Shown here: positions 1 through 20,035 of the stretch, piece after piece
How the letters are laid out: every line of letters begins with the position of its first letter
Numbering within the stretch: the stretch's first letter is position 1
From: Escherichia phage DCP80
Sequence record: PQ671644.1
Length of the DNA: 64,000 bases
Direction: 5' to 3' (one strand)
Translations under genes and position numbers: made by a program
Notes under the pieces: generated by a model
What the model saw: the letters and a program-made list of their open reading frames with translations, nothing else
The model's database searches: none
What the model was told of the DNA's origin: nothing

Positions 1-734
1 GATACATCCAGCAAGTTGGCATCAATACGTTTGGCACATACTTCTTCAGCCATTTCCATGCTTATATAAAGAACATTATGACCAGTCTGAAGATAGTCAG
101 CAGCTAACGAACAAAGTCCAAGAGATTTACCGACGTTTGTCCCGGCCAGTAAAACGTTCTCTGTACCGTACTCAACCCCACCCTTTGTGATTTTATTCAG
201 GATGTTAATACGGAACGGAACCTTCTTCGATTTGTTCAGATAAGTCTGGAATCGAGCTTCGTAATCGTTTAACCAGTCATGGCCCAGAGCAGAGTCAAAA
301 CAGATAGACAATGCATCGCGCATGATGTCGGGGATAGCACCAATATCCGGGATTCGTTTATCACGTTTATCTTTCGGAAGTTCGGCATTACTCTGGATTT
401 CGATAATCCTGGATGTGGCATTGAACATCGCAGACTTCTGCACATACTTCTCGGTTTCTTTAACCAACCATTCCTGGTCTTCTGGAGTATCGGCCAGGAC
501 TCCTAAGAGTTTCTTTGTGCCTTCATATTCGACTTCAGAAAGGTCAGAACTGTCGAGCGCGATATCAAGTGCAGTCTTAGTTGGTACCGCTTGATATTCT
601 TTTACGTGTTCGTTAATCGTATTAAAAAGAGTCTTCGCGGGACCCTTTTCAAAATATGTGTTATTCAGATACGGCCAGACTTTAACAAAATATTCCTTGT
701 TAAAGAGTAGCTGGGATAAAATAGTTTCTACCAC
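1..734 (-). CDS. 41: Replicative DNA helicase gp41 (DnaB-like), N-terminal part; gene continues beyond window start
   Basis: Minus-strand translation from GTG at 734 reads VETILSQLLFNKEYFVKVWPYLN..., matching T4 gp41 N-terminus; GAGG RBS upstream; open to position 1. Confidence 0.8.
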   Translation of the reverse strand, partial: MVETILSQLLFNKEYFVKVWPYLNNTYFEKGPAKTLFNTINEHVKEYQAVPTKTALDIALDSSDLSEVEYEGTKKLLGVLADTPEDQEWLVKETEKYVQKSAMFNATSRIIEIQSNAELPKDKRDKRIPDIGAIPDIMRDALSICFDSALGHDWLNDYEARFQTYLNKSKKVPFRINILNKITKGGVEYGTENVLLAGTNVGKSLGLCSLAADYLQTGHNVLYISMEMAEEVCAKRIDANLLDV

Positions 735-1072
735 TTCCACCACCTCTTTTTCATTTTAATTTTATCAATTTCATCTTGTATTTGCATTGTAACACACTTT
801 TCTACATGCACAGCAAGCTCCGCTTTGCGGTCTTCAGAAGGGGTGCCGAAATCAACTGAAACTTTTCCAGATGGTTCAATTTTAATTCCGGTTACGTACA
901 CAATGTGACTGGACCCATCAGGGAGTGATAACAGAATTTCCTGTCGTACGGTTCCCATGGATTGCCGGATAATCTCCAAACTTTTTTCGTAGTAAGGTAC
1001 AGAAGGAGCCTTAGCTCCCTCCGCATCTTTCTCGAAATTATCTAAATCAGATAAATCGATATCATTCATCAA
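728..1072 (-). CDS. 40: gp40-like protein (head vertex assembly chaperone position)
   Basis: 114-aa ORF between uvsX and 41 as in T4 uvsX-40-41 operon; start overlaps uvsX stop; called by synteny and size. Confidence 0.55.
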   Translation of the reverse strand: MMNDIDLSDLDNFEKDAEGAKAPSVPYYEKSLEIIRQSMGTVRQEILLSLPDGSSHIVYVTGIKIEPSGKVSVDFGTPSEDRKAELAVHVEKCVTMQIQDEIDKIKMKKRWWKW

Positions 1073-2053
1073 GGTCTTCCATCATATCTAAATCGTTTTC
1101 GATATCTGCCGCAGACGGTTTTGTCTTACCTTCAGGAGCAGTGTATTTTTCAACCTTGGAGGCAATAAGCGCATCAACTTCGGCATCAACAACAGCATTG
1201 CTATCGATTGCACCCAGCTGGTAATGGCGTTTGATTGCGTCACGGAAAGGTTCGTGCTTGAACAACGGGCCCCAGAATTCGGTGCAGTTAGTATCTTTTG
1301 CGCGCCATGATTTTTCTTCGCGGACCATTTCACCGGTCTCAACATCAAGATATTCACGGTTATACCAACCAACTTTCGGTTTCACCACAAATCCGATTTC
1401 CATTGCCATATCAAGCAGGCCAGAATACGGGTCAATACCGCCATCGAATTTTACATCAATGAAGAATTTACTTTTCTCTTTGACCATACGAGATTTTTCG
1501 GCGTTCAGAACAAATTGGAAACCTTCAAGTTCTTTACCAGTTTCTTTAATCTGGCGTTTGCCGATAATGAATACGGTGTCTGCGGAATACATAACACCTG
1601 TACCACCGGTCATAACGGTTTTGCTATACATCTCAATCGTCTCGATTGTATGGTTAACCGCGACACAAGGAATATCCTTGATGCTAAAATATGGAGTAAC
1701 AATACGGAACAGAGATTTCAGGGATTTGGCACGAGTCATATCGCCAACAACTTTTTCGTTCATCGCATCTTCTGTTTCTTTTTTCGACGCCATGTTACCG
1801 ATTGAGTCAATAAAGATAATGACTTTTTCACCACGCTCAATTGCTTCAAGCTGGTTAACCATATCAACTTTCAATTGTTCAACCGACTGGATTGGTGTGT
1901 GGATAACACGTTCCGGGTCAACTTTCATTGCACGAAGATAGGCTTCTGTGATACCAAATTCTGAATCATAGAACAAACAGATTGCATCGGGGTATTTGTT
2001 CATATATGCAGAGACCATCGTTAAACCCATATTGGATTTAAAGTGTTTTGACN
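1062..2053 (-). CDS. uvsX: UvsX RecA-like recombinase, partial (N-terminus lost at N-run)
   Basis: Near-identity to T4 UvsX over ~330 aa (SKHFKSNMGLTMVSAYM...FIIGKRQIKE...); ORF-track N-terminus MRLR across Ns is an artefact. Confidence 0.9.
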
Positions 2054-2102
2054 NNNNNNNNNNNNNNNNNNNNNNNNNNNNNNNNNNNNNNNNNNNNNNN
2101 NN

Positions 2103-2155
2103 ACGCAACCTCATGTTCGTTTAATTGAACGTCATCATCAAAGAGACTTACAGCC
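2103..2155 (-). CDS. 62: Clamp-loader small subunit gp62, first 17 codons only (cut by N-run)
   Basis: ATG at 2155 overlapping gene 44 stop; MAVSLFDDDVQLNEHEVA matches T4 gp62 N-terminus. Confidence 0.6.
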
Positions 2156-3107
2156 ATTTCATTTCCCCAGCCAGTTGAGCAAACAGATAAGTCAAGTGAA
2201 CTTCGGTATTGGCCGCAATGCCATGATACTGATTGTTCTCACCTACAATCTCATACATGCGGATGATACTTGCACCAGTCAGTTTGCCATACATTTCATC
2301 AGCCAGCTTTGCAATGAAGCTTGAATAATCATTTGCATGTTTAGGAGCCAGACCACGAAGAACTTTAAAGTTACGGTCTTTAAGGGCATCAATCACATCA
2401 TCAATTGGCGTGCGATTGTTTGTCACGATACTCAGAATACCAGAATCGATAACACCCTTTGCAGAGTAACGGTCAAGCTCGTTAATTGTCTTACGCAGGT
2501 CCGGGAAGTTATGCTTAACCAGAGCAGCAACAACTTTCAGGTCTTCGATTTCAACGCCTTCGTTTTTACATACCGCAACTGCACGATGAATCATCTCTTT
2601 CATCATGGTAGTCTGGTCAGCCGGAGTTGCTTCACCGAACTTAATGACGCGACAACGAGACTGCAACGGAGTGATAATGCCATCGATATTGTTCGCGGTC
2701 ATAATGATTGAACAGTTGCTCGAATAAGCTTCCATAAAGCTACGAAGATGCCGTTGTGATTCGGCCAGACCTGCACGGTCAAACTCATCGATAACGATTA
2801 CCTTACGGCGACCTTCGATTGATTTGGATGATGCAAAGCGAGTCAATTCATTACGCACAAAGTCAATTCGACAATCGGAGCCGTTAACAAACAGCATATC
2901 AGAATTCGTATCTGCGCACATAGCTTTTGCAACTGTTGTCTTACCAGTACCAGGGGAACTACTGACCAGAATCAAGTTAGGAATCAAACCTTTTTTAACA
3001 ATCGCCTCTAATGTTTCTTTATCATGAGCCGGGAGAATACACTCTGATAATGTACCTGGGCGGTATTTTTGTTCCCACATGAATTCTTTGTCATTAACCG
3101 TTAACAT
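2148..3107 (-). CDS. 44: Clamp-loader large subunit gp44 (AAA+ ATPase)
   Basis: 319 aa, Walker A SPGTGKTT, near-identical to T4 gp44 throughout. Confidence 0.93.
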   Translation of the reverse strand: MLTVNDKEFMWEQKYRPGTLSECILPAHDKETLEAIVKKGLIPNLILVSSSPGTGKTTVAKAMCADTNSDMLFVNGSDCRIDFVRNELTRFASSKSIEGRRKVIVIDEFDRAGLAESQRHLRSFMEAYSSNCSIIMTANNIDGIITPLQSRCRVIKFGEATPADQTTMMKEMIHRAVAVCKNEGVEIEDLKVVAALVKHNFPDLRKTINELDRYSAKGVIDSGILSIVTNNRTPIDDVIDALKDRNFKVLRGLAPKHANDYSSFIAKLADEMYGKLTGASIIRMYEIVGENNQYHGIAANTEVHLTYLFAQLAGEMKWL

Positions 3108-3142
3108 ATATTTTCCTCATATTAGTTTCTACTTTGTACTCC

Positions 3143-3160
3143 ATGGGGCCGAAGCCCCAT
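3143..3160 (-). other. Intercistronic GGGGC(UUCG)GCCCC hairpin between genes 45 and 44
   Basis: Perfect 7-bp stem with UUCG tetraloop on the transcribed strand between 45 stop and 44 start. Confidence 0.5.
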
Positions 3161-3163
3161 TTA

Positions 3164-3859
3164 TTAATCTTGGAATTCGTGGCTAGAGCCTTGTTCCATT
3201 GCAATCACATAGCTTGCTTGTGTGCCTTCAAACTTCGTAGCAAATTTATCATCTTTCGCCCAAAGCATAACACGGTAATCAGCCGGAATCATTTTCATGT
3301 TCAGTTTGTTAATGATAAATTTAAACGCTGCATCACCTTCGTAATCGCCACACACCAGGGAATACAATGGACGCGCCAATTCTTTATCTTCGAGCTGGTT
3401 ATAACCATGGATAACAATCTTACCGTCTTTGTTGGTGATTGCAAAAGTATCCAGAGACAAACCACCAGCCACACGCAGAAGCTGCTGCAGGTCACTGCCT
3501 TTCAGGTCGAAGATAACCTTAGCTACCGGGAAAGGAATCTTCTTAGCAGGGAACACGATAGTGCTCGGGTCAGCCGCAGGCCAGTGAATCGTTGAACGTT
3601 GGTCTTTGATAATGATATTTGATGCGTCTTCAGCCAGAGATACTTCAGCTTGGTCAGTTACCAGGCCCAGGATACTTAAGAAGCCGTTCAGGTCATAAAT
3701 CGCAGCTTCAAAGTCAATTGTATCATTGATTTCGGATTCGCCATATGACGCTCCAGTTACAGAACGAGTCAGGATGGTATTACCCGGCTTAAGCATAATG
3801 CCAGAGTAAATGGAGGTGAAATTTTTCAATACCGCGATTGTGTCCTTTGAGAATTTCAT
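3164..3859 (-). CDS. 45: Sliding clamp gp45
   Basis: 231 aa; strong similarity to T4 gp45 (MKFSKDT...AIYDLNGFL...DLQQLLRV...). Confidence 0.93.
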   Translation of the reverse strand: MKFSKDTIAVLKNFTSIYSGIMLKPGNTILTRSVTGASYGESEINDTIDFEAAIYDLNGFLSILGLVTDQAEVSLAEDASNIIIKDQRSTIHWPAADPSTIVFPAKKIPFPVAKVIFDLKGSDLQQLLRVAGGLSLDTFAITNKDGKIVIHGYNQLEDKELARPLYSLVCGDYEGDAAFKFIINKLNMKMIPADYRVMLWAKDDKFATKFEGTQASYVIAMEQGSSHEFQD

Positions 3860-3924
3860 GTAATTACCTTTTATTCAATATTCAGTTAATGAGAATTAAT
3901 TATACAACGTTTGTTAACAAGCAG

Positions 3925-4332
3925 TTAAGCAACAACTACCATTTGTTTGCGGATAGCTTCCGGAAGAGATTCAATATACTCTGGAAGTTGCGCAGCAATA
4001 ATAGAACCAGCTTGCACCAGATGGTCGTCCGAGTTAACACAATAATCATCTTCAAGACGTTCGGAACCATCACGGTCGATAACCAGTTTAGCACCAGCGG
4101 CCAGTGAATCATTGTAGTGATTACGCATCAGTTCAATCCACTTATCAGATACATCAGTATCAATCACACCGTACAGCATGAATTTAATTTCTTGTGGCAG
4201 AGACTGCAGACGGGTAGCAGATGCTTCATCACATGCCAGGACCCAGGATTTGCGAACACGGTTTTGGTTATGTGGGTTAGCGTCGGTGCGGATGGTTTTA
4301 ACTTGGATATCTTTAGCAGTTACGTTGTTCAT
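3925..4332 (-). CDS. rpbA: RpbA-like protein (RNA polymerase-binding protein position)
   Basis: ORF directly upstream of gene 45 as in T4; start chosen at ATG with GAGAG RBS (ORF track starts at 4356); sequence not verified. Confidence 0.45.
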   Translation of the reverse strand: MNNVTAKDIQVKTIRTDANPHNQNRVRKSWVLACDEASATRLQSLPQEIKFMLYGVIDTDVSDKWIELMRNHYNDSLAAGAKLVIDRDGSERLEDDYCVNSDDHLVQAGSIIAAQLPEYIESLPEAIRKQMVVVA

Positions 4333-4356
4333 AATATTCTCTCTATTCATTATCAA

Positions 4357-4548
4357 TTAATCAAAGTATTCATATGCGAACCAGGCATTGTGTCTGTTCG
4401 CGATTATTTTAACATATTCTTCGCCGAAAGCGTTTTGTAAGTCACGTTCAGTAACAAGGTGTTCATCTTTCGAAAAGGTATTAACTAACACATACCGTTT
4501 AATTTCAGGGACAGCCAGTAAATGCTGCCCGGTTAAGAAGTCAGCCAT
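4357..4548 (-). CDS. Hypothetical protein in gp45.2 position
   Basis: 62-aa model from internal Met (ORF track 83 aa from 4608 would overlap gene 46 end); synteny only. Confidence 0.35.
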   Translation of the reverse strand: MADFLTGQHLLAVPEIKRYVLVNTFSKDEHLVTERDLQNAFGEEYVKIIANRHNAWFAYEYFD

Positions 4549-4582
4549 AATAGCCTCTATTATAACATCCTTGTTTAAAGCA

Positions 4583-6265
4583 TTATTCCATAACAGTGAA
4601 TCGACCAACTTTTTTCATCTGGAGATGTTGCCCGTATGCTTCCGGGTCATGGTCTCGGTGACTGATAATAAAGATGTTGGTGTCTTCCAATTTGTTCAGG
4701 ATGGTAGCAATTGCTTTAACACCCTCTACATCCGTAGCCGAGTCAAAAACTTCGTCCAGAATCAAGGTGTTAATATTAACACCAGATACTTTCGCAGCAA
4801 TATCACGCCATGTAAACAGCAATGCAATATCGATACGAGCTTTTTCACCCTGGCTAAATGATGCATAGCTGAAGTCTTCACGTCCACGAGATTTAATCGT
4901 TTCGTTGAACTCTTCATCTAACGTAAAACTATAATCAGCTTCCATAACTTTAAGATAAGCGTTTATCTGCTTATTAAAGATAGGAATATATTTCTTAATA
5001 ATCGCACCCTTGATACCAGAATCTTTCAACATATCCGTTAGGATACCACGTTGATATTTTTCCATCACAAGGTCAGATTTCTGTTTGACTATTTTATCAA
5101 GCTGGTCTTGAAGCATTTTAATGTCTGCAGCATGGTCAATGAATTCTGACTTGGCTTGCTCGATTAATGCTTTAACCTTTTTAGCTTTTTCGACAGTCTG
5201 GACTAAGGTTTGTTTCTTGGTTTGAATGTCTTGAGCTATTGTACGCTGGTTTTGTCTTGCCTTGGTATACGCATCAAATTGCTCCTGAACAGCGTTCTGG
5301 CGAGCTTTATGGTTATCAGCTGATACATTACATTCTTCAATCTTTGACTCAATCCTGGCGACAATAGGGTCTCCTGGATGCAACTGACTGGCACAAGTCT
5401 GACAGCAACCACCTTTCTCGTACAGACCAACAACCTTTCGGTAATCGTCTATCTTCGATTTAATCAGGAATGATTCCTGCTTTAACTTCGTGAGTTCATG
5501 CTCAGGGTCTTCTCCCAAGATTATCTCGGTCAGTCTTGTCGTTGCTTCTTCGATAGTCGTCTTGATTCCACGTGCTTCTGTGGCAAGTTCATCATACATC
5601 GTTTGCAGCCGCAACAGATTATCACCTGATAATTTTCTTTGGCGGTCTTCGTTGTCCTGATAGATTTTAATCTGTTGAACAATACCATCATGCTGCACAT
5701 CCATCACCTGGATTTGACTATTGACTTCGCGGATAAGAGATTTGTTCAGCTTATCCATATCGGCCAGTACAGAAACCTCTAAAAGGTCTTCGACAAGTTT
5801 TCTTCTTGCAGGAGTGGATAGGCCCATAAAAGGGGTATATCCAGCTGTGCCGAGTACGACAATCTGTTTGAAGCTTGCATAGGACATTCCGATAAGCTGT
5901 TCAAATTCCGCTTGGAAGTCTTTACTGCTGGCAGATTCATCAAGACGTTTACCGCCACAAGAGATTTCAAAAACATTGGGTTTTTGCCCGCGTTTGATAT
6001 AGTATTCTTTTCCATCATATTCCATCCACAATTCAACGAGCATATCTTTTTTATTGCTCGAGTTAATCAGCTGGCCTTTCTTTACATCACGGAAAGGCTT
6101 ACCGAACATAGCAAAGGTAACCGCTTCAAGGAACGTAGATTTCCCCGCGCCGTTCTTACCGGTGACCAGAGTTTTCTGGACTTTATCCAGTTCAACAGTA
6201 ATCGGTTTGGCGCCAACCGACATAATATTTTTATAGATAACTTTCTTAAGCTTAAAAGTCTTCAT
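4583..6265 (-). CDS. 46: Recombination nuclease subunit gp46 (Rad50/SbcC-like ATPase)
   Basis: Walker A GKNGAGKST, signature SFSQGEKAR, Walker B LILDEVFD; near-identical to T4 gp46; start at MKTFKLKK. Confidence 0.92.
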   Translation of the reverse strand: MKTFKLKKVIYKNIMSVGAKPITVELDKVQKTLVTGKNGAGKSTFLEAVTFAMFGKPFRDVKKGQLINSSNKKDMLVELWMEYDGKEYYIKRGQKPNVFEISCGGKRLDESASSKDFQAEFEQLIGMSYASFKQIVVLGTAGYTPFMGLSTPARRKLVEDLLEVSVLADMDKLNKSLIREVNSQIQVMDVQHDGIVQQIKIYQDNEDRQRKLSGDNLLRLQTMYDELATEARGIKTTIEEATTRLTEIILGEDPEHELTKLKQESFLIKSKIDDYRKVVGLYEKGGCCQTCASQLHPGDPIVARIESKIEECNVSADNHKARQNAVQEQFDAYTKARQNQRTIAQDIQTKKQTLVQTVEKAKKVKALIEQAKSEFIDHAADIKMLQDQLDKIVKQKSDLVMEKYQRGILTDMLKDSGIKGAIIKKYIPIFNKQINAYLKVMEADYSFTLDEEFNETIKSRGREDFSYASFSQGEKARIDIALLFTWRDIAAKVSGVNINTLILDEVFDSATDVEGVKAIATILNKLEDTNIFIISHRDHDPEAYGQHLQMKKVGRFTVME

Positions 6266-6515
6266 CGTAATAAGCATCCTTGATACATGATTCAGCCATA
6301 TGGATTAATGCCTCTGGGGTATCATCTTCCATTACATTAAAGCTAAATTCTACGGCCCAATCGGTGACTACATAGACTTTGATAAGTTGACCAGTTTCCC
6401 GGTCAGTGATAGCTTCAAACCAATACTTAATAGTATTCGGTTGATTATCGTCGTCAACCACATCACATTCGCGGATATGCTCAAGCCCCGCTTCATTAAA
6501 ATCATAAAGTCTCAT
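6252..6515 (-). CDS. Hypothetical protein in gp46.1 position
   Basis: 87-aa ORF between 47 and 46; synteny only. Confidence 0.4.
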   Translation of the reverse strand: MRLYDFNEAGLEHIRECDVVDDDNQPNTIKYWFEAITDRETGQLIKVYVVTDWAVEFSFNVMEDDTPEALIHMAESCIKDAYYDEDF

Positions 6516-7307
6516 GGTTGCACCTCAAGATATAATTTGTTGGCCAATGCTTTGAGAGCTTTTGATTCTTTCTCATTGGCGTCAGGTAATGCATCGATAT
6601 ATTCTGCCATCATATCTGTTAAGCGTTTTATGTCTAACTCTTCATCAGAGTCTGACGTATCAACACTGTTATCAACCTTATTGACAACACGCAATTCGTG
6701 CACACGCTTTTCTAATTCAGATTCGAACTTGGTCAGGTCTTTATCGACTTTTTCTACAATAACACGGACTGATAAGTCTTTGAAGTCGTCGTAGTTAATA
6801 GTTTCGTTTGGATAAAAAATCTTCCGATGCCAGGTGGTTTCATTCGGAATAAATTTCATCTCTTCGGTTTCTGTATCAAATTCCCAGAATCCGCGCGGGT
6901 CATTCTCATCACCTGCTGTTAATGTCCATGGCGTTCCTATGTACTTAACGTTCGCAGCTTCTGAAATGGTATGGAAGTGCCCAGACCAAACTTGCTTGTA
7001 CTTCTTAAGGAAATCAGGCTCAAGTCCGTGGGATTTCAATCCTTTATAGAAATAAAACCCGGTTAATTCCCAGTGACCGATGCAATATTCGGCACCAGAA
7101 GTTTTGATGTGTTGATGAATGTCAGTCGCGTTCTCGTCACACATCCATGGAATCATATCAATCTGACAACCGTCAAAATCAACAGTCGTTGGCTTATCGT
7201 AGATTTTAACATGGTCATACTTATTCAGGAGTTCAGTGATAGCATTAGGATGAATCTTATTCTTCAGATTCATGTCATGGTTCCCGACTATCGTGTGCAT
7301 AGTAATT
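6512..7307 (-). CDS. 47: Recombination nuclease subunit gp47 (Mre11/SbcD-like), partial (N-terminus lost at N-run)
   Basis: Phosphoesterase motifs GNHD and GHFH; matches T4 gp47 from ...ITLHTIVGNHD to C-terminus. Confidence 0.88.
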
Positions 7308-7322
7308 NNNNNNNNNNNNNNN

Positions 7323-7405
7323 TTCCCGGTCGCATTATCTTTAAAAATTCTATCAAGAAGTCCAAAAAGTAGGTCTGATAATGAAAATCCTACTTTTGGT
7401 TCCAT
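7323..7405 (-). CDS. t: Holin t, first 27 codons (cut by N-run)
   Basis: MEPKVGFSLSDLLFGLLDRIFKDNATG resembles T4 holin T N-terminus; lies downstream of gene 38 as in T4. Confidence 0.7.
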
Positions 7406-7441
7406 ACTTTTCTCCTTTAAAGATATTTATAATATGGGGTA

Positions 7442-8242
7442 TTATACTCTGCTTCCGTATATCGTACCAACGTTTTGCCAGTTAGGAGCATTACCGGCGA
7501 CTGCTGCCCCAGCATTACCACCAGCACCAACTTTAAGCACTTTACCTCCATCATTCCAAGCGTTTTGGCCTTTAGCACCGACATTCCCACCAGCACCTGA
7601 ATGCGCGTTACCATAATTATAACCACCACCTGCTCCGGTAAGAGATGCCGCCCCACCGGAGTATCCTCCGCCACCAGCTGCACCAAATGGTCTACCGCCG
7701 CCAGCGCCTATATCTTGCCAGTTAGCACCTGAATGGGGTCTATACGCGATGCCACCACCACCGCCACCACCACCGGCTATAGCGCCATTATTACGGATAC
7801 GAAGTTTAGTTCCGGCATTGTTTTGTATGGCTATTCCGCCGGCCTCACCATTACCATTGCCGTCGCTATGGGTCCAGCCTCCTCGGCCTCCTCGACCATA
7901 AACGGTAACACCGCTATTAATATTAAGTTGTATATAAGCATTAGGTAAGTTGCTAGGGAATTCCAGACATGGGTTTCCGCGGTTGTTAGATACCAAGTCA
8001 CCAGTAATTGTAATAACAACAGGCGCACTGCCTTGTGCTCTCATCCAGTTTATAAGGGTGTTTTTATCATAGTTATGATTAGCCCCTATAGATAAGTAAA
8101 TTTCTTTTGATTGGTTAGCCATCGAACCCATCCAACCCGGGACAGCTACACGAACATCTCGCATTGCTGCATCCATCCAACGTTGGCCAGTTTCGTCAAC
8201 TGCAGATTGTCCGACCCAACCAGGTAATCCTACAATTGCCAT
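7442..8242 (-). CDS. 38: gp38 tail-fibre adhesin, T2-type with glycine-rich loops
   Basis: 266 aa; N-terminus MAIVGLPGWVG...QRWM typical of T2-type gp38; several poly-Gly stretches including eight consecutive Gly. Confidence 0.8.
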   Translation of the reverse strand: MAIVGLPGWVGQSAVDETGQRWMDAAMRDVRVAVPGWMGSMANQSKEIYLSIGANHNYDKNTLINWMRAQGSAPVVITITGDLVSNNRGNPCLEFPSNLPNAYIQLNINSGVTVYGRGGRGGWTHSDGNGNGEAGGIAIQNNAGTKLRIRNNGAIAGGGGGGGGIAYRPHSGANWQDIGAGGGRPFGAAGGGGYSGGAASLTGAGGGYNYGNAHSGAGGNVGAKGQNAWNDGGKVLKVGAGGNAGAAVAGNAPNWQNVGTIYGSRV

Positions 8243-8273
8243 AATAAATCCTTAGGGCCCGAAGGCCCTTTTC

Positions 8274-11200
8274 TTAATTTAATTTAGCTTCAAGTTCTCT
8301 AACTTTAGCCGACAGGGTTTTAACTGCTTCAATTAACAGAGCAACTTGTGCCTGAGTCGAAACTGTCAGAACCATATTTTCCTGCGAATCTAAAGACTCA
8401 TGCACCGCTTCAGGTAATACTTCTTTAAGATTCTGAGCAATAACACCTGCTTCAGTTTGAACCGCTTCACCACCGATATATTCAGCTTTATCATAGATTA
8501 AACCGTCGAGCTGTTCAACCTTTTCAAGAGCATTTTCAATAGGCCTGAAGTTTGATTTCAAACGAATGTCAGAACGAATATAAACGTTTGGAGCATTTAT
8601 ATTTTTATATGAGTACAAATCACCGTTTTGGAAACGGAAAGTCTGTACGCCATTCGCATATATGTCTAATAATCCATCGCCATTTTGCTTAATACCGGTA
8701 TCACTATCGCCAATTGTTATACTACTTCCACCGAGTGAGTTAGTTGTATTAACACCAAAGGCACTTGTTTGTGGCATCTGTACTTTACCCGGGCAATCTA
8801 AAATGCCATCCATTGTAAATCGCCATCTTGCTTGTTGGCCGTTAGCGTTATCTCCGCGAATACGAATAATACCTTCTCGCCAACCAGCTGTGGTACCAGA
8901 GCCGACCCATCCAAATTCAAAGGTTTGACGATATCCAGAGGAACCATAGTTGCTGTATGCACCTACAATAGGATAATAACTACCTGAATTAGATAAATCA
9001 CCATGGTCTGCCATAAAGGTGATTTTAGATTTCATTGTATCTGAGGTATCTCCCCAACCAGAGGCACCGCGCCAACCTGCAACCACACGAGACGAGATAT
9101 TGCCTAAACTAGTATTACCACTGGTGACATTAAGGCCGCCCGCCACGTTCAGACCACCACCAGTAATATTCAGACCACTGCCCATGCCTACACGACCATC
9201 AGCCATGTTGATAGAGAAAGGTCTTAAGCCATTCCACAACCCGTCAGTTGCATTCGGGTTTTCTTCCGTGTTTTTATCCGTAACTAAAATATGAAAATTT
9301 TCACCGTCGTTTCTAATCAAAGCGGCATTAGAACCTATATCATTACCGCTGGATTTGATACGCATACCTTTTTGGTTATTGGTAACGTATTCACCACGTG
9401 TAACAATATCCGATTCGCCGGCAGCAAACATTCCGTCAATGTTGTTCAGCATTCTTACAGATTTACCTACAACATGACCTTCAGGTAATGTTTCTACCAA
9501 AGGCTGGACACCGCTATTAATACCCACTACGGTTACTTTACTATTGCTACTGCATGTATATTCTACCGCCAAAGAATTAGAATACCCACCTAAGTAAACG
9601 TAAATATCATAGGTATCTTCGCTTGTATTAACAGAAGCAATCTGAGAAATAGCTTCAGAAGTTCTATTCCACAGCGTAGCATTAAGGCCTTTAGGGTTAT
9701 TATTGCCGGTTCTAAGGACTATTTCGGCTATTGAAGCCTGACCATAACTTTTAAAATTAAATCCAGAACCACCTGATATTTTAAAGGATGCTGTACCCGT
9801 CGCTTGTGGAATTTCTACAGTAGCAAATTTATACCAACCTGTAGTAGCGCCGCCAGCCCAACCGCCTGTGTTAACTTTACGGTCTAACGTTGTGTTCAGG
9901 TTTTTAAAGTTATCTAATGCAGTGCTGCCTGTAATATTACCGTCAGGACCAATACGAACATCGGAACCAATTTTAAGTGCCTTGGTTATATCAACAGTAT
10001 CAGAGTTTAATGCAATACCATGGGAGTATGTATAGTTATGTAAACGAACAACGTTGCCGCCGTCGCCAATACCGAGATACCATTTTGTAACATCTGCTTT
10101 ACGTCCTTGGATAAAGTTGGATGATGCCTGGGATGAAGCATTTACCACAATGGCATCAGAATCCATATTAACACGCAGTCTACAGTCGGTCTGGACAAAT
10201 TTACTTACGTTGTCTACTGTAAAAAGTGGACCATACCCGGCACTTTTATTCCCCATTATAACCGTGCCGGTGGCTAAATTGATAGATAGCGGACGAAGGT
10301 CACTTATTCCACCATTTTCTCCAGCGTTCTGAAGAGTAGGAATAAGATGGAATGAAGCAGAAGAACCTGTTTCTGAACGACGGAAAATCATACCATATTC
10401 GGCATTCCAAATTCTTAATGCATCAGCGGTACCGCCTATTTTAACTTGACCGTTAAAAGTGGCGCCACCATTTATATTCAATCCGTTTGCTGAAGTGATA
10501 CTACCTTCCGATGAAATACTACCAGCAGTAGTCAATCCACCATTTACACGGAATTGAATAGAACCTACGGTTTGGGAACTTGTGGGAGCAACGCGTTGTG
10601 AATAAAAATGCCAACCCTGTCCATCGCCTAATTCAAATACAGTTTCTCTGCTTTTATTAGTGTCATCCTCAAATGCGTTACCCCATACTTTCATGGTCAC
10701 ATAGCTTTTGTTCTGACCCGGGCGGGTGCCTGCGTTCCAAACAATCGTTTTTGTGCCATTGATAGTGGAAGAAGCGCCGAACTTTATACCTTTATTGTTG
10801 TTGTTAGTATTAAAAAATAATTCGTTATCTAATTTAACTGGTTGGGTCGAGGAAACTGTGCCATCGGCTCTAAGATTCAGTTCATTAACCCCGGTTTTAA
10901 TATTCAAAATACCTGGTTCAATAATCATGCCTTCTGCCATAGAAATGGCTACACGACCTGTACCACGGAAATAATGATAAAGTTTACCATTAGAATTATA
11001 ACCTAAATGGGTTTGGCCATCCCCAGAGTTATTACCGTCTATTTCGGTTCTAATAGAAACCATAGAAGAGTTCTGGCCAGGCAGAAGCCAAGTAAGACCT
11101 TGGTCATTACTACGGCCAAATATGGTTTTACTAGTCCCACGGAAGCCGTCGGAAGTAATAGATGCAACGGAATAACCTCCACCAACTAAATCATAAACAC

Positions 11201-12027
11201 CTTGCTTAATATATTTCAGACCGGTTACAGTGTCACCGAGAACAAGATACTTATCGCCCATTACACCGACGTTACCATAATCACTAGACGGGAAACCCGT
11301 AGTGAATGTACCTAATGCAAGGCTATTACGGCCTGCCATTCGTCCGTCATTACGAATGCCATATTGTTTAGATGATGGAGTATTACCTGTCCACCATGAC
11401 ATTTCATCAGCTTGACCTGTCTGGGCGGTGCAAAGCTCATGCCACATAGTGCCACCAGACTTGGCGCGAACTTTACGAAGATAGTTTACACCATTCGTTT
11501 CGCCTGTGCCTGGGTATACATAATTAACTAATGAATCTGTATCATATACACCAAAGGCTTTGCCACCGTGGATAACTGTATCGACTGCAATGCGTTTAGT
11601 TACTAATGAATCTGATGCTAAAATACGGTTGGCCTGAAATTCACCACCATTTATAGAACGGAAATAGAATTCACTATTAGCAGTACCTTCTGTCCCCTGT
11701 TTAATCCTAATGCGTAATTCACCAGCATTTGTAGTTTGAGGACGTGCATATATAACACCGCGTTCACTGCCATCAGCATTTTCAAACCATAAATGGGCAT
11801 TTGATGTTGTATCGTTTGAAGCTCTTGAATAAAACGAGCCTTGCAACGCTCTAAAAGTTTGAGCCGAAATACTAGTGCCTGCTGTAATCGACCCGCTTGT
11901 AGAAAAGTTTCCAAAATTGTTTAATGGGCCGTTAATGCGTAAAGTTCCATTAATAGTTACATCCCCGTCAACCTGCCCACCTTTAGCAAAGCCCAAATCA
12001 ATAATCTGTCCCTGGTCTGACTTAGTN
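8274..12027 (-). CDS. 37: Long tail fibre distal subunit gp37, T2-type with C-terminal chaperone-like domain; N-terminus lost at N-run
   Basis: More than 1250 aa; N-terminal half near-identical to T4 gp37; C-terminus carries SDIRLKSNF motif and coiled-coil tail instead of the T4 His-box tip. Confidence 0.9.
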
Positions 12028-12062: not shown

Positions 12063-12246
12063 GCGGAAAGGGGGTGTTATGAAAACATTCAAAGATTTTA
12101 TCAACGAAGATATGGTTGCAGGTGATGCAGGTGGAAACCCAACTAATATCACAACAGGTACCACTTCCGGGGCAGTTGTCAATAAAGGCCCTGAACAAAT
12201 CCCATCAAAAAAGCGTAAGAACAAAGACGATAAACCTACAGTATAA
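12063..12246 (+). CDS. 3' end of an ORF emerging from the N-run (possibly gene 41 C-terminus by synteny)
   Basis: Open frame from the gap ending ...PSKKRKNKDDKPTV; immediately upstream of gene 61. Confidence 0.3.
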
Positions 12247-12278
12247 TGGTCCTTCGGGGCCATTGAAATGAGGAAACT

Positions 12279-13307
12279 ATGTCATATATTGATAAAGAAT
12301 TTGCAGTCAGAGCTTTATCGTATCAACCACGTTATAGAGAAGTCACCGGGAGCACATTTAAAGCAAACTGCAGATGTAAAGTTTGTGGCGACTCCCAGAA
12401 AGATTCACATAAAGCCAGATTCTGGGCGTATACTAATCCGGCTGATGGCGCGGTTTACGTGAAATGTTTTAACTGTGACTACTCCACGCATATAAGCAAA
12501 TACATAAAAGAGTTTGAGCCGGATTTGCACCGGGAATATATGGTTGAGAAGTACAAGGAGAACGCCTTCGGGCGACAACGCACTGAAGTTGTCGAAACTC
12601 CGAAAGAACCAGAAAAAACTCCGGTTATCGAACAGCTTGCTTTTTGTGAAAGACTCGATACTTTACCAGAAGCACATCCGATAGTTAAGTATGTAAAAAG
12701 TCGATGTATTCCAAGCAATGTTTGGAACCGGTTATGGTTTACAAACCAATGGCCCGCATTAGTTAACTCCGTCAATCCTGGGACGTATAAGAATGAAACG
12801 AATGAACCACGCTTGGTTATTCCTATCTTCAACGGCAAAAAAGAAATCGAATCTTTCCAAGGACGAGCTCTTCGCAAAGATGCACCACAAAAATATATCA
12901 CAATCAAAGCTCACCCAGAAGCTTCCAAAGTCTATGGCGTAGACAAGATTGATGAGCGTAAACGCGTATGGGTAATGGAAGGTCCAATTGATAGTTTGTT
13001 TATCCCTAACAGCATTGCGATAACTGGTGGCACATTGTCATTGGAAGCAGTTCCTTATGCTGAAACCAGAGTATGGGTAATGGACAACGAGCCAAGACAT
13101 CCGGATACGATTAAACGTATGAAGAAGCTCGTTGAAGCTGGCGAAGCTGTTATGTTCTGGGACAATGCACCATGGCATACGAAAGACATAAATGAGATGG
13201 TTAAATCAGAAGGGGCAACCCCTGAACAAATCGAATCATATATGGCCGATAACGTTGCTCAAGGATTGATGGCGAGAATGCGACTTTCGAAGTACGCAAA
13301 AGTTTAG
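12279..13307 (+). CDS. 61: DNA primase gp61
   Basis: 342 aa; zinc ribbon CRCKVCGDS...CFNC and toprim region near-identical to T4 gp61. Confidence 0.92.
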   Translation: MSYIDKEFAVRALSYQPRYREVTGSTFKANCRCKVCGDSQKDSHKARFWAYTNPADGAVYVKCFNCDYSTHISKYIKEFEPDLHREYMVEKYKENAFGRQRTEVVETPKEPEKTPVIEQLAFCERLDTLPEAHPIVKYVKSRCIPSNVWNRLWFTNQWPALVNSVNPGTYKNETNEPRLVIPIFNGKKEIESFQGRALRKDAPQKYITIKAHPEASKVYGVDKIDERKRVWVMEGPIDSLFIPNSIAITGGTLSLEAVPYAETRVWVMDNEPRHPDTIKRMKKLVEAGEAVMFWDNAPWHTKDINEMVKSEGATPEQIESYMADNVAQGLMARMRLSKYAKV

Positions 13308-13363
13308 GAAGGGATTCCGGTAAAGTAACCGATGATGGAATGAATATGTTCTATTGTGACCTG

Positions 13364-13385
13364 GGGTAAGTGCACCCCTTGTGTT
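13364..13385 (+). terminator. Stem-loop terminator candidate downstream of gene 61
   Basis: GGGGT-AAGTGC-ACCCC hairpin followed by TTGTGTTG. Confidence 0.4.
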
Positions 13386-13415
13386 GCAGCGATAGGCACA
13401 ACCAGTAAGTTCCAC

Positions 13416-13613
13416 CTATATAAGGCCGATTAATGCTAGTGAAACATCTACAACTGATTCGAGCGCGACGACTGGCAATATAACACCATGTGCCAATGCA
13501 ATAGGGGCAACAATGAAATTCCAGAGTAGAACAAAACAGAGTATCGAAAGGACCAGAATCGTTCGCTTACGACTGCCTTTGATGGCTTGAATTAGACTAG
13601 ATAGTTTGAGCAT
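13416..13613 (-). CDS. Small hydrophobic membrane protein, opposite strand
   Basis: 65 aa, two predicted TM segments, AAAGGAGGA RBS; conserved in the second copy of this block. Confidence 0.45.
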   Translation of the reverse strand: MLKLSSLIQAIKGSRKRTILVLSILCFVLLWNFIVAPIALAHGVILPVVALESVVDVSLALIGLI

Positions 13614-13697
13614 ACATCCTCCTTTCTTGTATTTATGCTTTAAACCAATATGATATAATTAACATACAAACAATATGAATTGATAAGGAAAAATATA

Positions 13698-14216
13698 ATG
13701 GCTCATTTTAACGAGTGTTCTCAACTGATTGCTGGTGTTGATAAAGCGCAAGATGCGTATAATGATGTCCTAAAAGGCAATGATGACCCTCTGCAGATTA
13801 TGCTTGATATGCAGAAATCTTTGCAGGTTCGTCTGGCTACAGAAAAACCAGAATATAACGCACATCCAGATGAATTGGCAACCGCAGGCGATGTTGTTGC
13901 ATGGCTTCGTAACCAGAAAGATTATGTCGACGACGAATTCCGTGAACTTCTGACTTCGCTCGGTGGCATGTCTAATGGTGAGAAAGCCGCATCCAGTTGC
14001 TGGAAGCCGTGGAAAGCGCAACATGCTGAATATCGTAATCGTCGTATTGATGAACTGTCTCCTGAAGACCAGCTCGAAATTAAATTCGAAATGATTGATA
14101 TTCTGCACTTCGTTCTGAATATGTTTCAAGGTCTGGGTCTTTCTGCTGAAGAAATCTTTAAACTGTATTACTTGAAAAATGCCGAGAACTTTGCTCGCCA
14201 AGACCGAGGTTATTAA
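13698..14216 (+). CDS. 56: dCTP pyrophosphatase gp56
   Basis: MAHFNECSQLIAGVDKAQ...EEIFKLYYLKNAENFARQDRGY, near-identical to T4 gp56; ORF-track start 13680 is an upstream TTG. Confidence 0.9.
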   Translation: MAHFNECSQLIAGVDKAQDAYNDVLKGNDDPLQIMLDMQKSLQVRLATEKPEYNAHPDELATAGDVVAWLRNQKDYVDDEFRELLTSLGGMSNGEKAASSCWKPWKAQHAEYRNRRIDELSPEDQLEIKFEMIDILHFVLNMFQGLGLSAEEIFKLYYLKNAENFARQDRGY

Positions 14217-14497
14217 TGGCTCGTTTAAATAAACGTCAACTTAAGAAAGCTCGTAAGAAGCATATTAATGCTATAATTGAAAACGCTAATGTTGAAATCT
14301 TTGTAGAACTCTTAGCCAATCAACTAAAAAATTTATCTAAACAAGAAATTGATATGAATACTGAAAATGCTAAAAATGTAATCGAAACTCATAATGTTTT
14401 TGCTCAAGCTACAGCCGAATACATTGCCAATCCTACTGCTGAAAATCTAGCTAAAATGACTGAAGCCAATAAAGCAGTCCAAGCCGCCAAATTGTAA
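14216..14497 (+). CDS. Hypothetical protein
   Basis: 93-aa ORF coupled to gene 56 stop (ATGA overlap), Lys-rich N-terminus. Confidence 0.5.
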   Translation: MARLNKRQLKKARKKHINAIIENANVEIFVELLANQLKNLSKQEIDMNTENAKNVIETHNVFAQATAEYIANPTAENLAKMTEANKAVQAAKL

Positions 14498-14499
14498 GT

Positions 14500-14507
14500 T
14501 ATAAATA
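14500..14507 (+). promoter_or_regulatory. T4 late promoter box TATAAATA upstream of soc
   Basis: Exact TATAAATA about 30 nt upstream of soc start. Confidence 0.6.
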
Positions 14508-14538
14508 CACCTGTAATTAAACAACAAAGGAGTTTATT

Positions 14539-14772
14539 ATGGGTGGTTTCGTTAATATCAAAACCTTCACGCATCCAGCTGGTGAAGGTAAAGAAGTTAA
14601 AGGCGTTGAAGTATCAGTTCCGTTTGAAATCTATTCGAACGAGCACCGTATTGCTGATGCGCACTATCAGACTTTCCCTTCGGCCGTTGCAGCATATACT
14701 ACTGTAGTGACTGATGCAGCCGATTGGCGAACTAAGAACGCGGCAATGTTTACGCCTACCCCAGTAGTTTAA
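14539..14772 (+). CDS. soc: Small outer capsid protein Soc
   Basis: 77 aa; GFVNIKTF...AHYQTFPS... resembles T4 Soc; late promoter upstream. Confidence 0.8.
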   Translation: MGGFVNIKTFTHPAGEGKEVKGVEVSVPFEIYSNEHRIADAHYQTFPSAVAAYTTVVTDAADWRTKNAAMFTPTPVV

Positions 14773-14777
14773 TTATA

Positions 14778-14802
14778 GGGAACCTTCGGGTTCCCTTTTT
14801 TG
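14778..14802 (+). terminator. Rho-independent terminator
   Basis: GGGAACC-TTCG-GGTTCCC hairpin followed by TTTTTTG. Confidence 0.7.
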
Positions 14803-14849
14803 CTTTTAATAGAGATGGTATAATTATTTCAACTACAGAGGAGAATACT

Positions 14850-15047
14850 ATGTTAAACCGTTGGATTAAACCAAATAAAACTTTAGATGAAGTTATTGCC
14901 CATGATGTGCATTTTAAGTATGGTCTGGGTGTGTTTGACGAGGTTGTCGTGCACTCGTTCATGATGCACGATGATGATTCTTTAGAATTCAATATTGAAA
15001 TCCGTTATGATGATGGTCAAGTTGAATTTAAACGAGGTTTCCTATGA
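14850..15047 (+). CDS. Hypothetical protein
   Basis: 65-aa ORF with GAGGAGAA RBS. Confidence 0.5.
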   Translation: MLNRWIKPNKTLDEVIAHDVHFKYGLGVFDEVVVHSFMMHDDDSLEFNIEIRYDDGQVEFKRGFL

Positions 15048-15403
15048 TTAGTTGGCTCAAGAATTTATTCAAGACTAAACCTGGTGAAGGGGTGGTTCCT
15101 GTTAGCCTGCCAGATGTTAAACTAAGAGAATATGTTTACATGGGCGATGGTATGATGGAAGAAGTTCGTCGCCGCCCAGAAAAAGCCGGTAATGTCGGAC
15201 CAGGCGCATTGCCATTGAATTCGAAAAAGTTAAAAGAGCATCTGGATTCAAGACGTTCTACAAGCCATGTCGATACTACACCGCATATTGATATGACTCC
15301 GATTGTGGTTACTGCGGCCGCTGTCAGTTCGTGGACTGGTGATTCGTCTTATTCCTCCTATGATTCAGGAAGCTGCGATTCATCTTCCAGCTCGTGTGAT
15401 TAA
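15044..15403 (+). CDS. Hypothetical protein with Ser/Cys-rich C-terminus
   Basis: 119-aa ORF, start overlaps upstream stop; C-terminus SYDSGSCDSSSSSCD. Confidence 0.5.
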   Translation: MISWLKNLFKTKPGEGVVPVSLPDVKLREYVYMGDGMMEEVRRRPEKAGNVGPGALPLNSKKLKEHLDSRRSTSHVDTTPHIDMTPIVVTAAAVSSWTGDSSYSSYDSGSCDSSSSSCD

Positions 15404-15598
15404 ATGAGAATTACAAGTTGGCTTAAAGATTGGTTGGTTACCCCGGGGATTGATGATTCCTGGGTGGCCAGAGCCGAGGAAGAAATGCAGCGCGAAGCTG
15501 AAGAATGGGCCGCCGCAAGCGTCAAAGATATGCAGGAAAAGAAGACCGAACGAGCTGTGCTTAAACTGATGCGTGATATCTACGGAGATAAATCATGA
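15404..15598 (+). CDS. Hypothetical protein
   Basis: 64-aa ORF, identical protein in second copy at 44193-44387. Confidence 0.5.
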
Positions 15599-15744
15599 CA
15601 CAAGAAGAAGCTGAACGTCAGGCAAAAGAAGCACTGGATTTGCTTTTGAAAATTGGCAGTAAAATGATGGAAGAAAATGAAAAGTACATCAAGGAAAATA
15701 AAGTTCCTGATGGTCCATTAGTTGGTAAGAGGAAAACATTATGA
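15595..15744 (+). CDS. Hypothetical small protein
   Basis: 49-aa ORF with ATGA overlaps at both ends. Confidence 0.35.
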
Positions 15745-16229
15745 AAGTATATGAATTAGAATTCTATGTCCGTGATTCTGCTGGGCAAACACGACCTTAC
15801 GATGCAACAGCCTGTCTTATCTTTGCATATAATGGCATGGATTCGGTTACTGAGTTGGAAACAAAATTAATGAACCTGACGATGCCAGAAAATGTCATGA
15901 TGAAGGTATTTCATAACAAAAACGTTAATGTGGCTGAAGGGTGTCCGTTTACTGTTTCCGAAGCTCTACACATTAAAGGCTATCGTCACCCGGACCCTTA
16001 TGCAGAAGGTACTGCGGATATCTTCTATAAAGATACCGATAGAATTTCAGAAGAACGCCTTAAAGGTCGCACATATCTGATTTCCACTACCGACGACCTT
16101 GCTGAAGTTGAACGTCAGATTTGGAAGCACTTTGATATCGGTCTGCGCTTTACTTTAACAGAAGAAGCTATTCAAGATACTAAAATGCGTGCTCGTATGT
16201 ATGGTTACGGTCCGATTGGTGGTTACTAA
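15741..16229 (+). CDS. Hypothetical protein
   Basis: 162-aa ORF, RBS AGGAAAA. Confidence 0.55.
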
Positions 16230-16405
16230 TGGATTTATTTGAACTTTTTGAAGAGCCTAAAGCTCCCACAGAAGCCCGTGTGGACCTAGTTGACGAACTT
16301 GATGCGATTATACAGAAGCACGGTTTTAGTCTCCCATTGGAAGTTCTGCGCGACCTGGCCTCATATTACGACGACCCACCTCCATGGGCACCATGGAAAC
16401 AGTAG
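16229..16405 (+). CDS. Hypothetical small acidic protein
   Basis: 58-aa ORF overlapping upstream stop. Confidence 0.4.
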   Translation: MDLFELFEEPKAPTEARVDLVDELDAIIQKHGFSLPLEVLRDLASYYDDPPPWAPWKQ

Positions 16406-16562
16406 TTTACTTACTCCCCTCCTAATGACATAATGACCTTTCTTACAACAGAGAGGTCATTATGAACATCATCAAATCTGATACCGAACCCAACCAGTTA
16501 AAATTTAGTGAAATGGAGATAGCTTCANNNNNNNNNNNNNNNNNNNNNNNNNNNNNNNNNNN

Positions 16563-16778
16563 ACTGAAGGCACAAGCCCCGGTGGCCAAGGTTCAAGTCA
16601 ATCAGCAGGCCCTTCTAATGGTTCTGCACATGCATCACATTCTCAAGGTATAGAGAATATTAAATCCAGCTATGTAAATACCACTCACGGTAAAGCACAG
16701 GAAGCATGGGCGAAAGGTAGAGTAGTTACTGATTCTGTTTTCTGTCATATGCCAAAATATGTTGGTTGTAAGAAATAA
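16563..16778 (+). CDS. C-terminal fragment of unknown Gly/Ser-rich protein (5' end in N-run)
   Basis: Open frame from gap to TAA at 16776-16778. Confidence 0.35.
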   Translation, partial: TEGTSPGGQGSSQSAGPSNGSAHASHSQGIENIKSSYVNTTHGKAQEAWAKGRVVTDSVFCHMPKYVGCKK

Positions 16779-16782
16779 TCTA

Positions 16783-16806
16783 AGGACCCTTCGGGGTCCT
16801 TTTTTA
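16783..16806 (+). terminator. Rho-independent terminator
   Basis: AGGACCC-TTCG-GGGTCCT hairpin followed by TTTTTT. Confidence 0.7.
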
Positions 16807-16810
16807 TTTT

Positions 16811-16870
16811 AAAAAGTAGTGTACAACCAGATGGTCATAAGACATAATGATTCCATACTGAGTTACCAAA
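16811..16870 (+). promoter_or_regulatory. Early promoter cassette, family A
   Basis: -35-like GTGTAC 16819-16824, 18-nt spacer, -10 CATAAT 16843-16848, conserved ATTCCATACTGAGTTAC leader. Confidence 0.6.
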
Positions 16871-16889
16871 TAAACAAACGGAGAATAAA

Positions 16890-17096
16890 ATGTTAGAATT
16901 AATCAAAGCTGCTGGTGAAAAAGGTCTGATGGTTAACACTCGTGACCCTGAGCAACGTCAAGCATTTGGTGAGTTAAAAGCCAAAGGTCTGGTTAAAGCA
17001 TCCCTTGGTATTGGTAATGCTTTGCGTGTGACTTTGACCCCTGCAGGTAAAGCAATGTTCTTCCCTAAACCATTACCAAAACGTCGTCGCAAGTGA
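16890..17096 (+). CDS. Hypothetical protein
   Basis: 68-aa ORF behind promoter cassette, RBS GGAGAA. Confidence 0.55.
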   Translation: MLELIKAAGEKGLMVNTRDPEQRQAFGELKAKGLVKASLGIGNALRVTLTPAGKAMFFPKPLPKRRRK

Positions 17097-17102
17097 GGAA
17101 TT

Positions 17103-17405
17103 ATGAAGAAGTATGAACTTGACATGATTGAGGCATGTCTGAAATCTGCTGACCATTTTAAGTTGAAAATGCACAAGTTAAGAGGAATGGTCAAAACTCC
17201 AGAAGAGAAGAAGCGATATGCTCTTAAGGAGAAATGTAAAGCTCTTATCATGATGGATAAGCTGCAAATGGTCGCCGCAGAAGCTCACAGGACACGTAAA
17301 GCCGAGGCCCTTGGTGTTTATATGGCAGAGCAGCTTCATCGTGCACAGCAAGCCGTTAAGAGCGTCTGGTTCAGCGGTGAAAATACTGAAAGAACTTTTA
17401 ATTAA
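17103..17405 (+). CDS. Hypothetical protein
   Basis: 100-aa ORF, RBS GAGGAA. Confidence 0.55.
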   Translation: MKKYELDMIEACLKSADHFKLKMHKLRGMVKTPEEKKRYALKEKCKALIMMDKLQMVAAEAHRTRKAEALGVYMAEQLHRAQQAVKSVWFSGENTERTFN

Positions 17406-17460
17406 ATGTGTACATAGTATGGGGATAGACGTATAATGTTCCCATACTGAGTTACCAAAT
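17405..17460 (+). promoter_or_regulatory. Early promoter cassette, family A
   Basis: GTGTAC 17408-17413, 18-nt spacer, TATAAT 17432-17437, CCATACTGAGTTAC leader. Confidence 0.6.
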
Positions 17461-17473
17461 ACTGGAGAATAAA

Positions 17474-17998
17474 ATGGACGCAAAATCAATCTTTAATCTG
17501 ATTAATTACAATAATGGTAATTTTAAATCAGAAGCGCAAAGCAAGTTCTTTAATGATGTTGCTTGTGCAGGTGAGATTACAGTATCAGGTGGTCAGACTT
17601 ATAAAAACGCCTGGAACTGGATTGTGACTGTTGATTCAGTTGGTATTGTTGATGTGTATAAAAACACCAACAAAAACCGCTCTTTGTTCTGGTCAAGAGA
17701 GACTAATGCAGAATATCAAGCGACAAGAGCGAAGAAAAATATGCCTACTGAATCTGATGTACAAAACATCAAATCAGATATCCAATATTATGATGGTCTG
17801 ATTGCTGAACAACAAGCGGTGCTTGATAAGTTCAATGAAATCAAGGCGTGTAAAGAGATTCCTGAATTCATGAGGGAATCAGTTAATGAACAATACAATC
17901 TCACTTCAGAGCGTATTGAAACCTATACCAAACAAAGAGCAGAGCGCCAGGTACTCCTTCAGAAGTTTGAAGAGCGTTTAAAGACGGTTCTCGCATAA
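17474..17998 (+). CDS. Hypothetical protein
   Basis: 174-aa ORF. Confidence 0.6.
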   Translation: MDAKSIFNLINYNNGNFKSEAQSKFFNDVACAGEITVSGGQTYKNAWNWIVTVDSVGIVDVYKNTNKNRSLFWSRETNAEYQATRAKKNMPTESDVQNIKSDIQYYDGLIAEQQAVLDKFNEIKACKEIPEFMRESVNEQYNLTSERIETYTKQRAERQVLLQKFEERLKTVLA

Positions 17999-18061
17999 AC
18001 GCTTTATACCAAGGATGGTATAATGGTTCTGACCTTTGATTAATCTATTGAGGAAATTATT

Positions 18062-18904: not shown

Positions 18905-18905
18905 T

Positions 18906-20004: not shown

Positions 20005-20005
20005 T

Positions 20006-20035
20006 GTTTACTTCCAAGGATGGAGGGAGTATAAT
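20006..20035 (+). promoter_or_regulatory. Sigma70-type early promoter
   Basis: GTTTAC 20006-20011, 18-nt spacer, TATAAT 20030-20035. Confidence 0.55.

Follow-up and report, generated by a model that had tools for sequence, protein, structure and literature searches.

Runs of N in a T4-like coliphage sequence as line padding between contigs sorted by length

Near the beginning of the 64,000-nucleotide stretch of DNA analysed here (the window), gene 62 of a T4-like phage starts on the minus strand and soon disappears into a run of N, on the other side of which uvsX is already under way. The question raised by this locus is what such a run of N stands for: a gap between linked pieces of one genome, a masked stretch in a rearranged genome, or something that has no physical counterpart at all. 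The closest relatives of the window are the JS98/SP18 group of T4-like coliphages (~97-98% identity, Shigella phage SP18) and not T4, and SP18 served as the reference for alignment. The features at the locus are as follows:

Left of 2053, minus strand: uvsX, matching residues 64-393 of SP18 UvsX, with the first ~63 codons absent.
2053-2102: run of 50 N, with minus-strand genes on both flanks.
2103-2157, minus strand: 5' fragment of gene 62 (clamp-loader subunit), with the start codon at 2157-2155, then 18 codons (start included) plus 1 nt, then N.

The minus-strand translation from 2157, MAVSLFDDDVQLNEHEVA, is identical to residues 1-18 of SP18 gp62. The original prediction, which was made from the letters of the window, had gene 62 starting at 2155 and running into 49 N from position 2054; the start of the gene stands, but the run is 50 nt long and begins one position earlier. 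That the far side of the run lies within uvsX is borne out both by the alignment to SP18, in which the gene is entered at codon 64, and by Pfam, in which T4_UVSX_C is matched at E=3.7e-39 while the RecA match begins only at profile position 79, meaning that the N-terminus of uvsX is missing. The two edges of the run correspond to SP18 positions 22856 and 28007, with 5,151 bp between them against the 50 N found here. The SP18 interval that is absent from this place comprises the 5' end of uvsX, two small ORFs, imm, gene 43, one further ORF, regA and most of gene 62. A missing stretch of ~7 kb had been put forward on the T4 model; this figure overstates what is missing, because the interval in the closest reference is 5.15 kb and genes 42 and beta-gt are not annotated within it.

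Each piece between runs of N was aligned by local blastn to the full annotated SP18 record (170.6 kb), which is the piece-by-piece comparison proposed with the original prediction, and the pieces proved to be scattered over the SP18 genome in both orientations. Inside each piece the match is collinear, with reported identities of 92-99% and lower stretches in two tail-fibre pieces (contigs 3 and 7 below). On the circularised SP18 genome, the two flanks of every one of the 15 runs of N are 5,151 to 84,543 bp from each other, as expected from the earlier claim that similar breaks occur at every run. The breaks that had been named were all located by mapping: gp47 to t at 7308-7322, gp24 to t at 24922-24962, gp19 to the soc region at 44127-44162, and gene 61 to nrdB, with the group I intron described below, at 47537-47582. 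Annotated SP18 genes contain 27 of the 30 piece ends, and the genes cut in this way include uvsX, 62, 47, gp24, gp17, gp19, gp55 and nrdB, several of which are essential in T4.

A reference genome with these pieces adjacent in this order was sought with three chunks of 23-25 kb, together covering the window, among 50,697 phage records. None was found: no record among the 50,697 holds at least 80% of any chunk in one place, and the best chunk coverage (28-32%) comes from two pieces that by chance lie on the same strand and within joining distance. The top matches in the phage-record searches were all SP18/JS98-group coliphages. With flanks 5.2-84.5 kb apart in SP18 and no reference in which they adjoin, adjacency across the N is untrustworthy, as had been cautioned.

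The N themselves (562 in the whole window, in 15 runs of 5-58 nt each) follow an arithmetic rule. Every piece that comes after a run starts at a position for which (start-1) mod 60 = 2 (15 of 15), and in all 14 testable cases the run is 60 - (piece length mod 60) nt long, an agreement with a chance probability of ~(1/60)^14. Because this arithmetic is exact, the N complete the last line of a 60-column FASTA record and carry no information on physical gaps. The suspicion that the gap lengths are not to scale is thus justified in 14 cases out of 14, the runs being line-width padding.

One boundary bears no N. The 8,359-nt piece at 16563-24921 corresponds to SP18 48103 to 44156 (-) and then, directly abutting, to 102118 to 106285 (+). 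This junction, 20762/20763, is the only synteny break inside a piece and it falls on the 60-base register: the segment before 20763 is exactly 4,200 nt long (70 x 60), and since 4200 mod 60 = 0 the contig that it represents needs no filler, which accounts for the missing N. The join is blunt: nrdC.4 breaks off near residue 233 of 329 and is followed directly, in a different reading frame, by the final 28 nt of gp67. It is spanned by none of the 50,697 phage records, though each half matches at >99%, and the junction 32-mer is absent from IMG/VR, the GTDB genomes and the JGI metagenomes. A chimeric contig was considered for the 8,359-nt piece and rejected, as a boundary with zero padding explains both the join and the anomalous length, and a chimeric clone or a real rearrangement at 20762/20763 was likewise superseded by the hidden boundary, the join being blunt, out of frame and present in no collection. 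Hidden boundaries of this kind are expected for ~1 contig in 60, and a set of 16 contigs has a ~24% chance of including one or more. The expectation that every break sits at a run of N therefore holds for the 15 runs but fails at this one boundary.

Splitting the piece at 20762/20763 restores an order of length, and the window resolves into one sorted list of 17 contigs with one boundary invisible. The 15 complete contigs descend strictly from 5,205 to 3,194 nt (1/15! = 7.6e-13), and the two contigs cut by the window edges both fit the order; if the sort order holds, the true length of contig 1 is at least 5,205 nt. Two sorted lists from two assemblies had been considered for the lengths, an idea rejected once the 4,200-nt part and the 60-base register gave a single list. 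The contigs are listed below with window positions, length, gene content (primes mark genes cut at a contig end), counterpart and strand in SP18, and the N that follow:

Contig 1, 1-2052, at least 2,052 nt, cut by the window start, genes on the minus strand: gp41', gp40, uvsX without codons 1-63; SP18 20805-22856 (+), 98.9%; then the 50 N described above.
Contig 2, 2103-7307, 5,205 nt, genes on the minus strand: gp62', gp44, gp45, rpbA, 45.2, gp46, 46.2, gp47'; SP18 28007-33196 (+), 96.7%; then 15 N (15 predicted by the rule).
Contig 3, 7323-12026, 4,704 nt: t', adhesin-type gp38, gp37', tail-fibre tip variant 1; first 111 nt 100% identical to SP18, afterwards ~73% in gp37 only; then 36 N.
Contig 4, 12063-16527, 4,465 nt: 61.1, 61, 56, soc pair, srh/mrh, modA.x genes, modB', locus variant 1; SP18 17251 to 12613 (-), 94-98%; then 35 N.
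Contig 5, 16563-20762, 4,200 nt: nrdC.x region, ending inside nrdC.4; SP18 48103 to 44156 (-), 92%; no N after it.
Contig 6, 20763-24921, 4,159 nt, genes on the plus strand: gp67', gp68, gp21, gp22, gp23, gp24'; SP18 102118-106285 (+), 96.5%; then 41 N.
Contig 7, 24963-29045, 4,083 nt: t', T4 chaperone-type gp38, gp37, gp36', tip variant 2; SP18 160890 to 156952 (-), 72-97%; then 57 N.
Contig 8, 29103-33152, 4,050 nt: 30.1', gene 30 (ligase), alt genes; SP18 127538 to 123483 (-), 94.8%; then 30 N.
Contig 9, 33183-36994, 3,812 nt: denB.1, rIIB, rIIA, rIIA.1; SP18 169332-170605 then 1-2520 (+), only apparently broken where the record is arbitrarily opened; then 28 N.
Contig 10, 37023-40718, 3,696 nt: modA', srd, dda.1, dda, dexA; SP18 11497 to 7802 (-), 96.7%; then 24 N.
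Contig 11, 40743-44126, 3,384 nt: gp17', gp18, an extra 222-aa ORF, gp19'; SP18 97097-99801 (+) with a 698-nt insertion; then 36 N.
Contig 12, 44163-47536, 3,374 nt: srh to soc to 56 to 61, locus variant 2; SP18 13739-17063 (+); then 46 N.
Contig 13, 47583-50944, 3,362 nt: nrdB' with a group I intron, denA, rnlA, alc, pseT.3'; SP18 141095 to 138043 (-) with a 311-nt insertion; then 58 N.
Contig 14, 51003-54357, 3,355 nt: tRNA region; SP18 70685 to 67309 (-); then 5 N.
Contig 15, 54363-57667, 3,305 nt: gp55', 55.x genes, nrdH; SP18 34707-38002 (+), 92%; then 55 N.
Contig 16, 57723-60916, 3,194 nt: motA', gene 52, ndd; SP18 163895-166790 (+); then 46 N.
Contig 17, 60963-64000, at least 3,038 nt, cut by the window end: mobD.1' to tk.2'; SP18 50467-53522 (+), 97.8%.

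Inside the contigs, gene content is the same as in SP18, of the JS98 group (Tevenvirinae: Gaprivervirus, Dhakavirus), and the order is collinear with it. The beginning of contig 8 is also contained in an ordinary IMG/VR genome of 170 kb, a match of no diagnostic value. The neighbourhoods 41-40-uvsX and 62-44-45-46-47 of the T4 map are also found here, consistent with the SP18 annotation, while nucleotide identity to T4 is only ~80% where measured. Relative to SP18, the contigs differ by different gp38/gp37 modules, by small intergenic differences and by two larger additions. The first is an nrdB group I intron that SP18 lacks, matched by Rfam RF00028 (74 bits) at 47688-47971 (+) on the nrdB sense strand; the corresponding insertion spans ~47712-48022, and its ~311 nt leave little room for a homing-endonuclease ORF. 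The second is the 698-nt insertion between genes 18 and 19, containing an ORF of 222 aa at 43232-43900 (+) that SP18 lacks. Its product is weakly matched by a treble-clef zinc finger (DUF4379, short of the curated cut-off), shows an HNH-like motif discernible by eye, and on these sequence features is probably a free-standing homing endonuclease.

Smaller features of the contigs include the first 243 nt of contig 5 (16563-16805), which have no SP18 counterpart, and, in both contig 4 and contig 12, a segment of ~278 nt that SP18 lacks, located between gene 56 and soc. Three adjacent tRNA genes at 52219-52449 (+) (Rfam RF00005, 61-72 bits) are equivalent to the SP18 Arg/Asn/Met tRNA cluster. The spacer between gene 52 and ndd contains a tandem duplication of ~260 nt (59834-60348), in which the copies at 60003-60084 and 60267-60348 agree at 84% and include a GC-rich hairpin, GGCGTCCAAAGACGCC, and those at 59834-59881 and 60092-60139 agree at 98% and include a similar inverted repeat, GGGCTAACGAGTAGCCC. 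Dispersed intergenic repeats of ~90-130 nt are found at ~16783-16894, 53064-53158, 54109-54193 and 58136-58249, and match SP18 intergenic sites near 67.5, 68.5, 130.5, 146.4 and 164.4 kb at 74-88%; presumably they may be early-promoter or stem-loop cassettes of the hyperplastic regions of T4-type phages.

Two loci are present in two versions each. Contigs 4 and 12 carry the same soc-56-61 locus, single-copy in SP18, in opposite orientation and at 96.6% identity over 3,378 columns, with differences in 114 columns (110 mismatches plus gaps) that are unevenly spread, at 1 to 17 per 200 columns. Contigs 3 and 7 carry alternative t-38-37 modules: the best matches of contig 3 are IME341, IME08 and fDHCT2 (89-92%), annotated as 'gp38 distal long tail fiber adhesin', and the best match of contig 7 is phage 04086 (96.8%), with T4 genes 36-38 matching at 80%. 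The doubling of two loci in divergent versions means that at least two related phages contributed to the list.

The way in which these versions begin and end is equally specific. Contig 12 agrees with contig 4 throughout its first and last 111 nt and departs from it at base 112 from either end; its two ends lie in unrelated places, gp024 and the spacer between 61 and 61.1. Contigs 3 and 7 start at a common base in gene t, are identical for exactly 111 nt and then diverge; the shared stretch comprises the 5' part of t together with the spacer, with the swap point at the gp38 end, and their other ends are not shared. Between sequences that are 96.6% identical, even one terminal identical run of exactly 111 nt is improbable, and three are much more so. 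Exact sharing followed by difference, as found at these three termini, is the pattern of branch points in the assembly of a strain mixture. In a de Bruijn graph, neighbouring edges share exactly k end bases, and as any odd k below 128 is allowed a value of 111 is possible. The alignment of contigs 4 and 12 also contains identical runs that exceed 111 nt and reach 269 nt, and since a plain graph with k=111 would collapse them, resolution by read pairs or paths would be needed. The 17 contigs showed no dovetail overlaps with one another, as would be the case if their partners were beyond the window edges, and the three termini are the sole support of the k=111 graph model.

The window is very probably a slice of a multi-record FASTA file of contigs, sorted by length and padded with N, from the de Bruijn assembly of a phage mixture. 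In this scheme, a sample with at least two JS98/SP18-group coliphages would have been assembled with a final k of 111; where the phages differ, the graph would branch and the contigs stop, leaving fragments of 3-5 kb with genes cut at arbitrary points. The records, of which the window would hold 17, would then have been written out from longest to shortest in 60-base lines and run together, each last line being filled up to 60 with N and a contig whose length is a multiple of 60 receiving none. We infer the contig-list origin from the arithmetic and the mapping alone, and infer too both the type of assembler and a mixture that lay in the sample rather than in pooled data. Runs of N set by formatting, an order set by a bookkeeping rule and flanks that are truncated and not adjacent, which are the marks of an artefact, all occur here together. 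What puts gene 62, N and uvsX side by side is nothing more than one contig ending and the next shorter one beginning.

Contig files of the SPAdes type list their records by decreasing length at 60 bases per line, and the window resembles them in its descending sort, its 60-base lines and its exactly shared 111-nt termini. Such files have no N between records, and the filler here would have been added by whatever joined the lines. As in the gaps of GenBank/AGP scaffolds, where a fixed 100 N stands for 'unknown length', the runs do not measure missing sequence. Conventional scaffold gaps, however, have a fixed or estimated size and separate pieces whose order and orientation are based on evidence, whereas here size alone decides the order, line width decides the number of N (5-58, and once 0), and adjoining pieces may belong to different genomes.

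Among other explanations, it is very unlikely that the window pools partial sequences of several phage isolates, deposited one by one as shotgun clones or PCR products and then sorted by size, with contigs 3 and 7 obtained from the same primer in gene t. The JS98-group phages were historically sequenced piecemeal, and a common primer would account for the identical start of these two contigs inside the conserved 5' end of t; nothing specific on a partial-sequencing origin of JS98-group phages was found in the literature. Against this stand the exactly 111 nt at three independent termini, the unrelated sites at which contig 12 ends, where no common primer is expected, and the different other ends of contigs 3 and 7. 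The primer-site explanation of their shared start became less likely once the ends of contig 12 showed 111 nt too.

A true scaffold, in which the pieces of a single phage genome are ordered and oriented by links and N stands for unsized gaps, is extremely unlikely. The junction at 2053-2102 agrees with it, being collinear with SP18 and in the same orientation with 5.15 kb missing, but collinear junctions of consistent orientation, on which a true scaffold depends, number only this one in 16, and a single such coincidence among 16 junctions is not unlikely. At the remaining 14 runs of N, the flanks map 9-85 kb from each other and in mixed orientation. Nor would a scaffold be strictly sorted by length, have runs of N that obey a line-padding rule exactly, or contain divergent copies of two loci, each of which it should represent once, whereas soc-56-61 and t-38-37 are each present twice. 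The original prediction of a non-contiguous scaffold was therefore right about the lack of contiguity but not about the scaffold, the window being a length-sorted list of contigs from more than one genome. A genuinely rearranged T4-like genome, with short stretches masked by N and flanks adjacent but for 5-58 bases, is scarcely credible: it accommodates the bare presence of short runs of N and nothing more, while 27 of the 30 ends truncate genes, a 3.4-kb inverted duplicate (96.6%) and two different t-38-37 modules would be needed, none of the 50,697 phage records has any such adjacency, 15 junctions are filled with N and the one without N destroys both nrdC.4 and gp67, and biology leaves the padding arithmetic and the length sort unexplained.

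The pattern in the window is thus a formatting artefact and not a biological feature, and any conclusion that relies, across one of its joins, on gene neighbours, operons, fused or truncated genes, or distances is invalid. The join at 20762/20763, in particular, would otherwise pass for a striking nrdC.4-gp67 fusion or rearrangement. Adjoining contigs may belong to different phages, and a common genome cannot be assumed for them. If other windows share the same pipeline, the 60-base register, the descending lengths and the padding rule would reveal hidden boundaries mechanically.

For the phages themselves, the contig list from a mixed assembly suggests, tentatively, that two JS98/SP18-group phages with a ~97%-identical backbone and different tail-fibre tips may have co-occurred in one sample, the switch between tips lying precisely at the conserved 5' end of t. 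The tips would then be a T2/IME08-type gp38 adhesin on the one hand and, on the other, a gp37 tip accompanied by a gp38 chaperone of the T4 type. If this is true, the window would hold a natural snapshot of adhesin-module exchange within one population.
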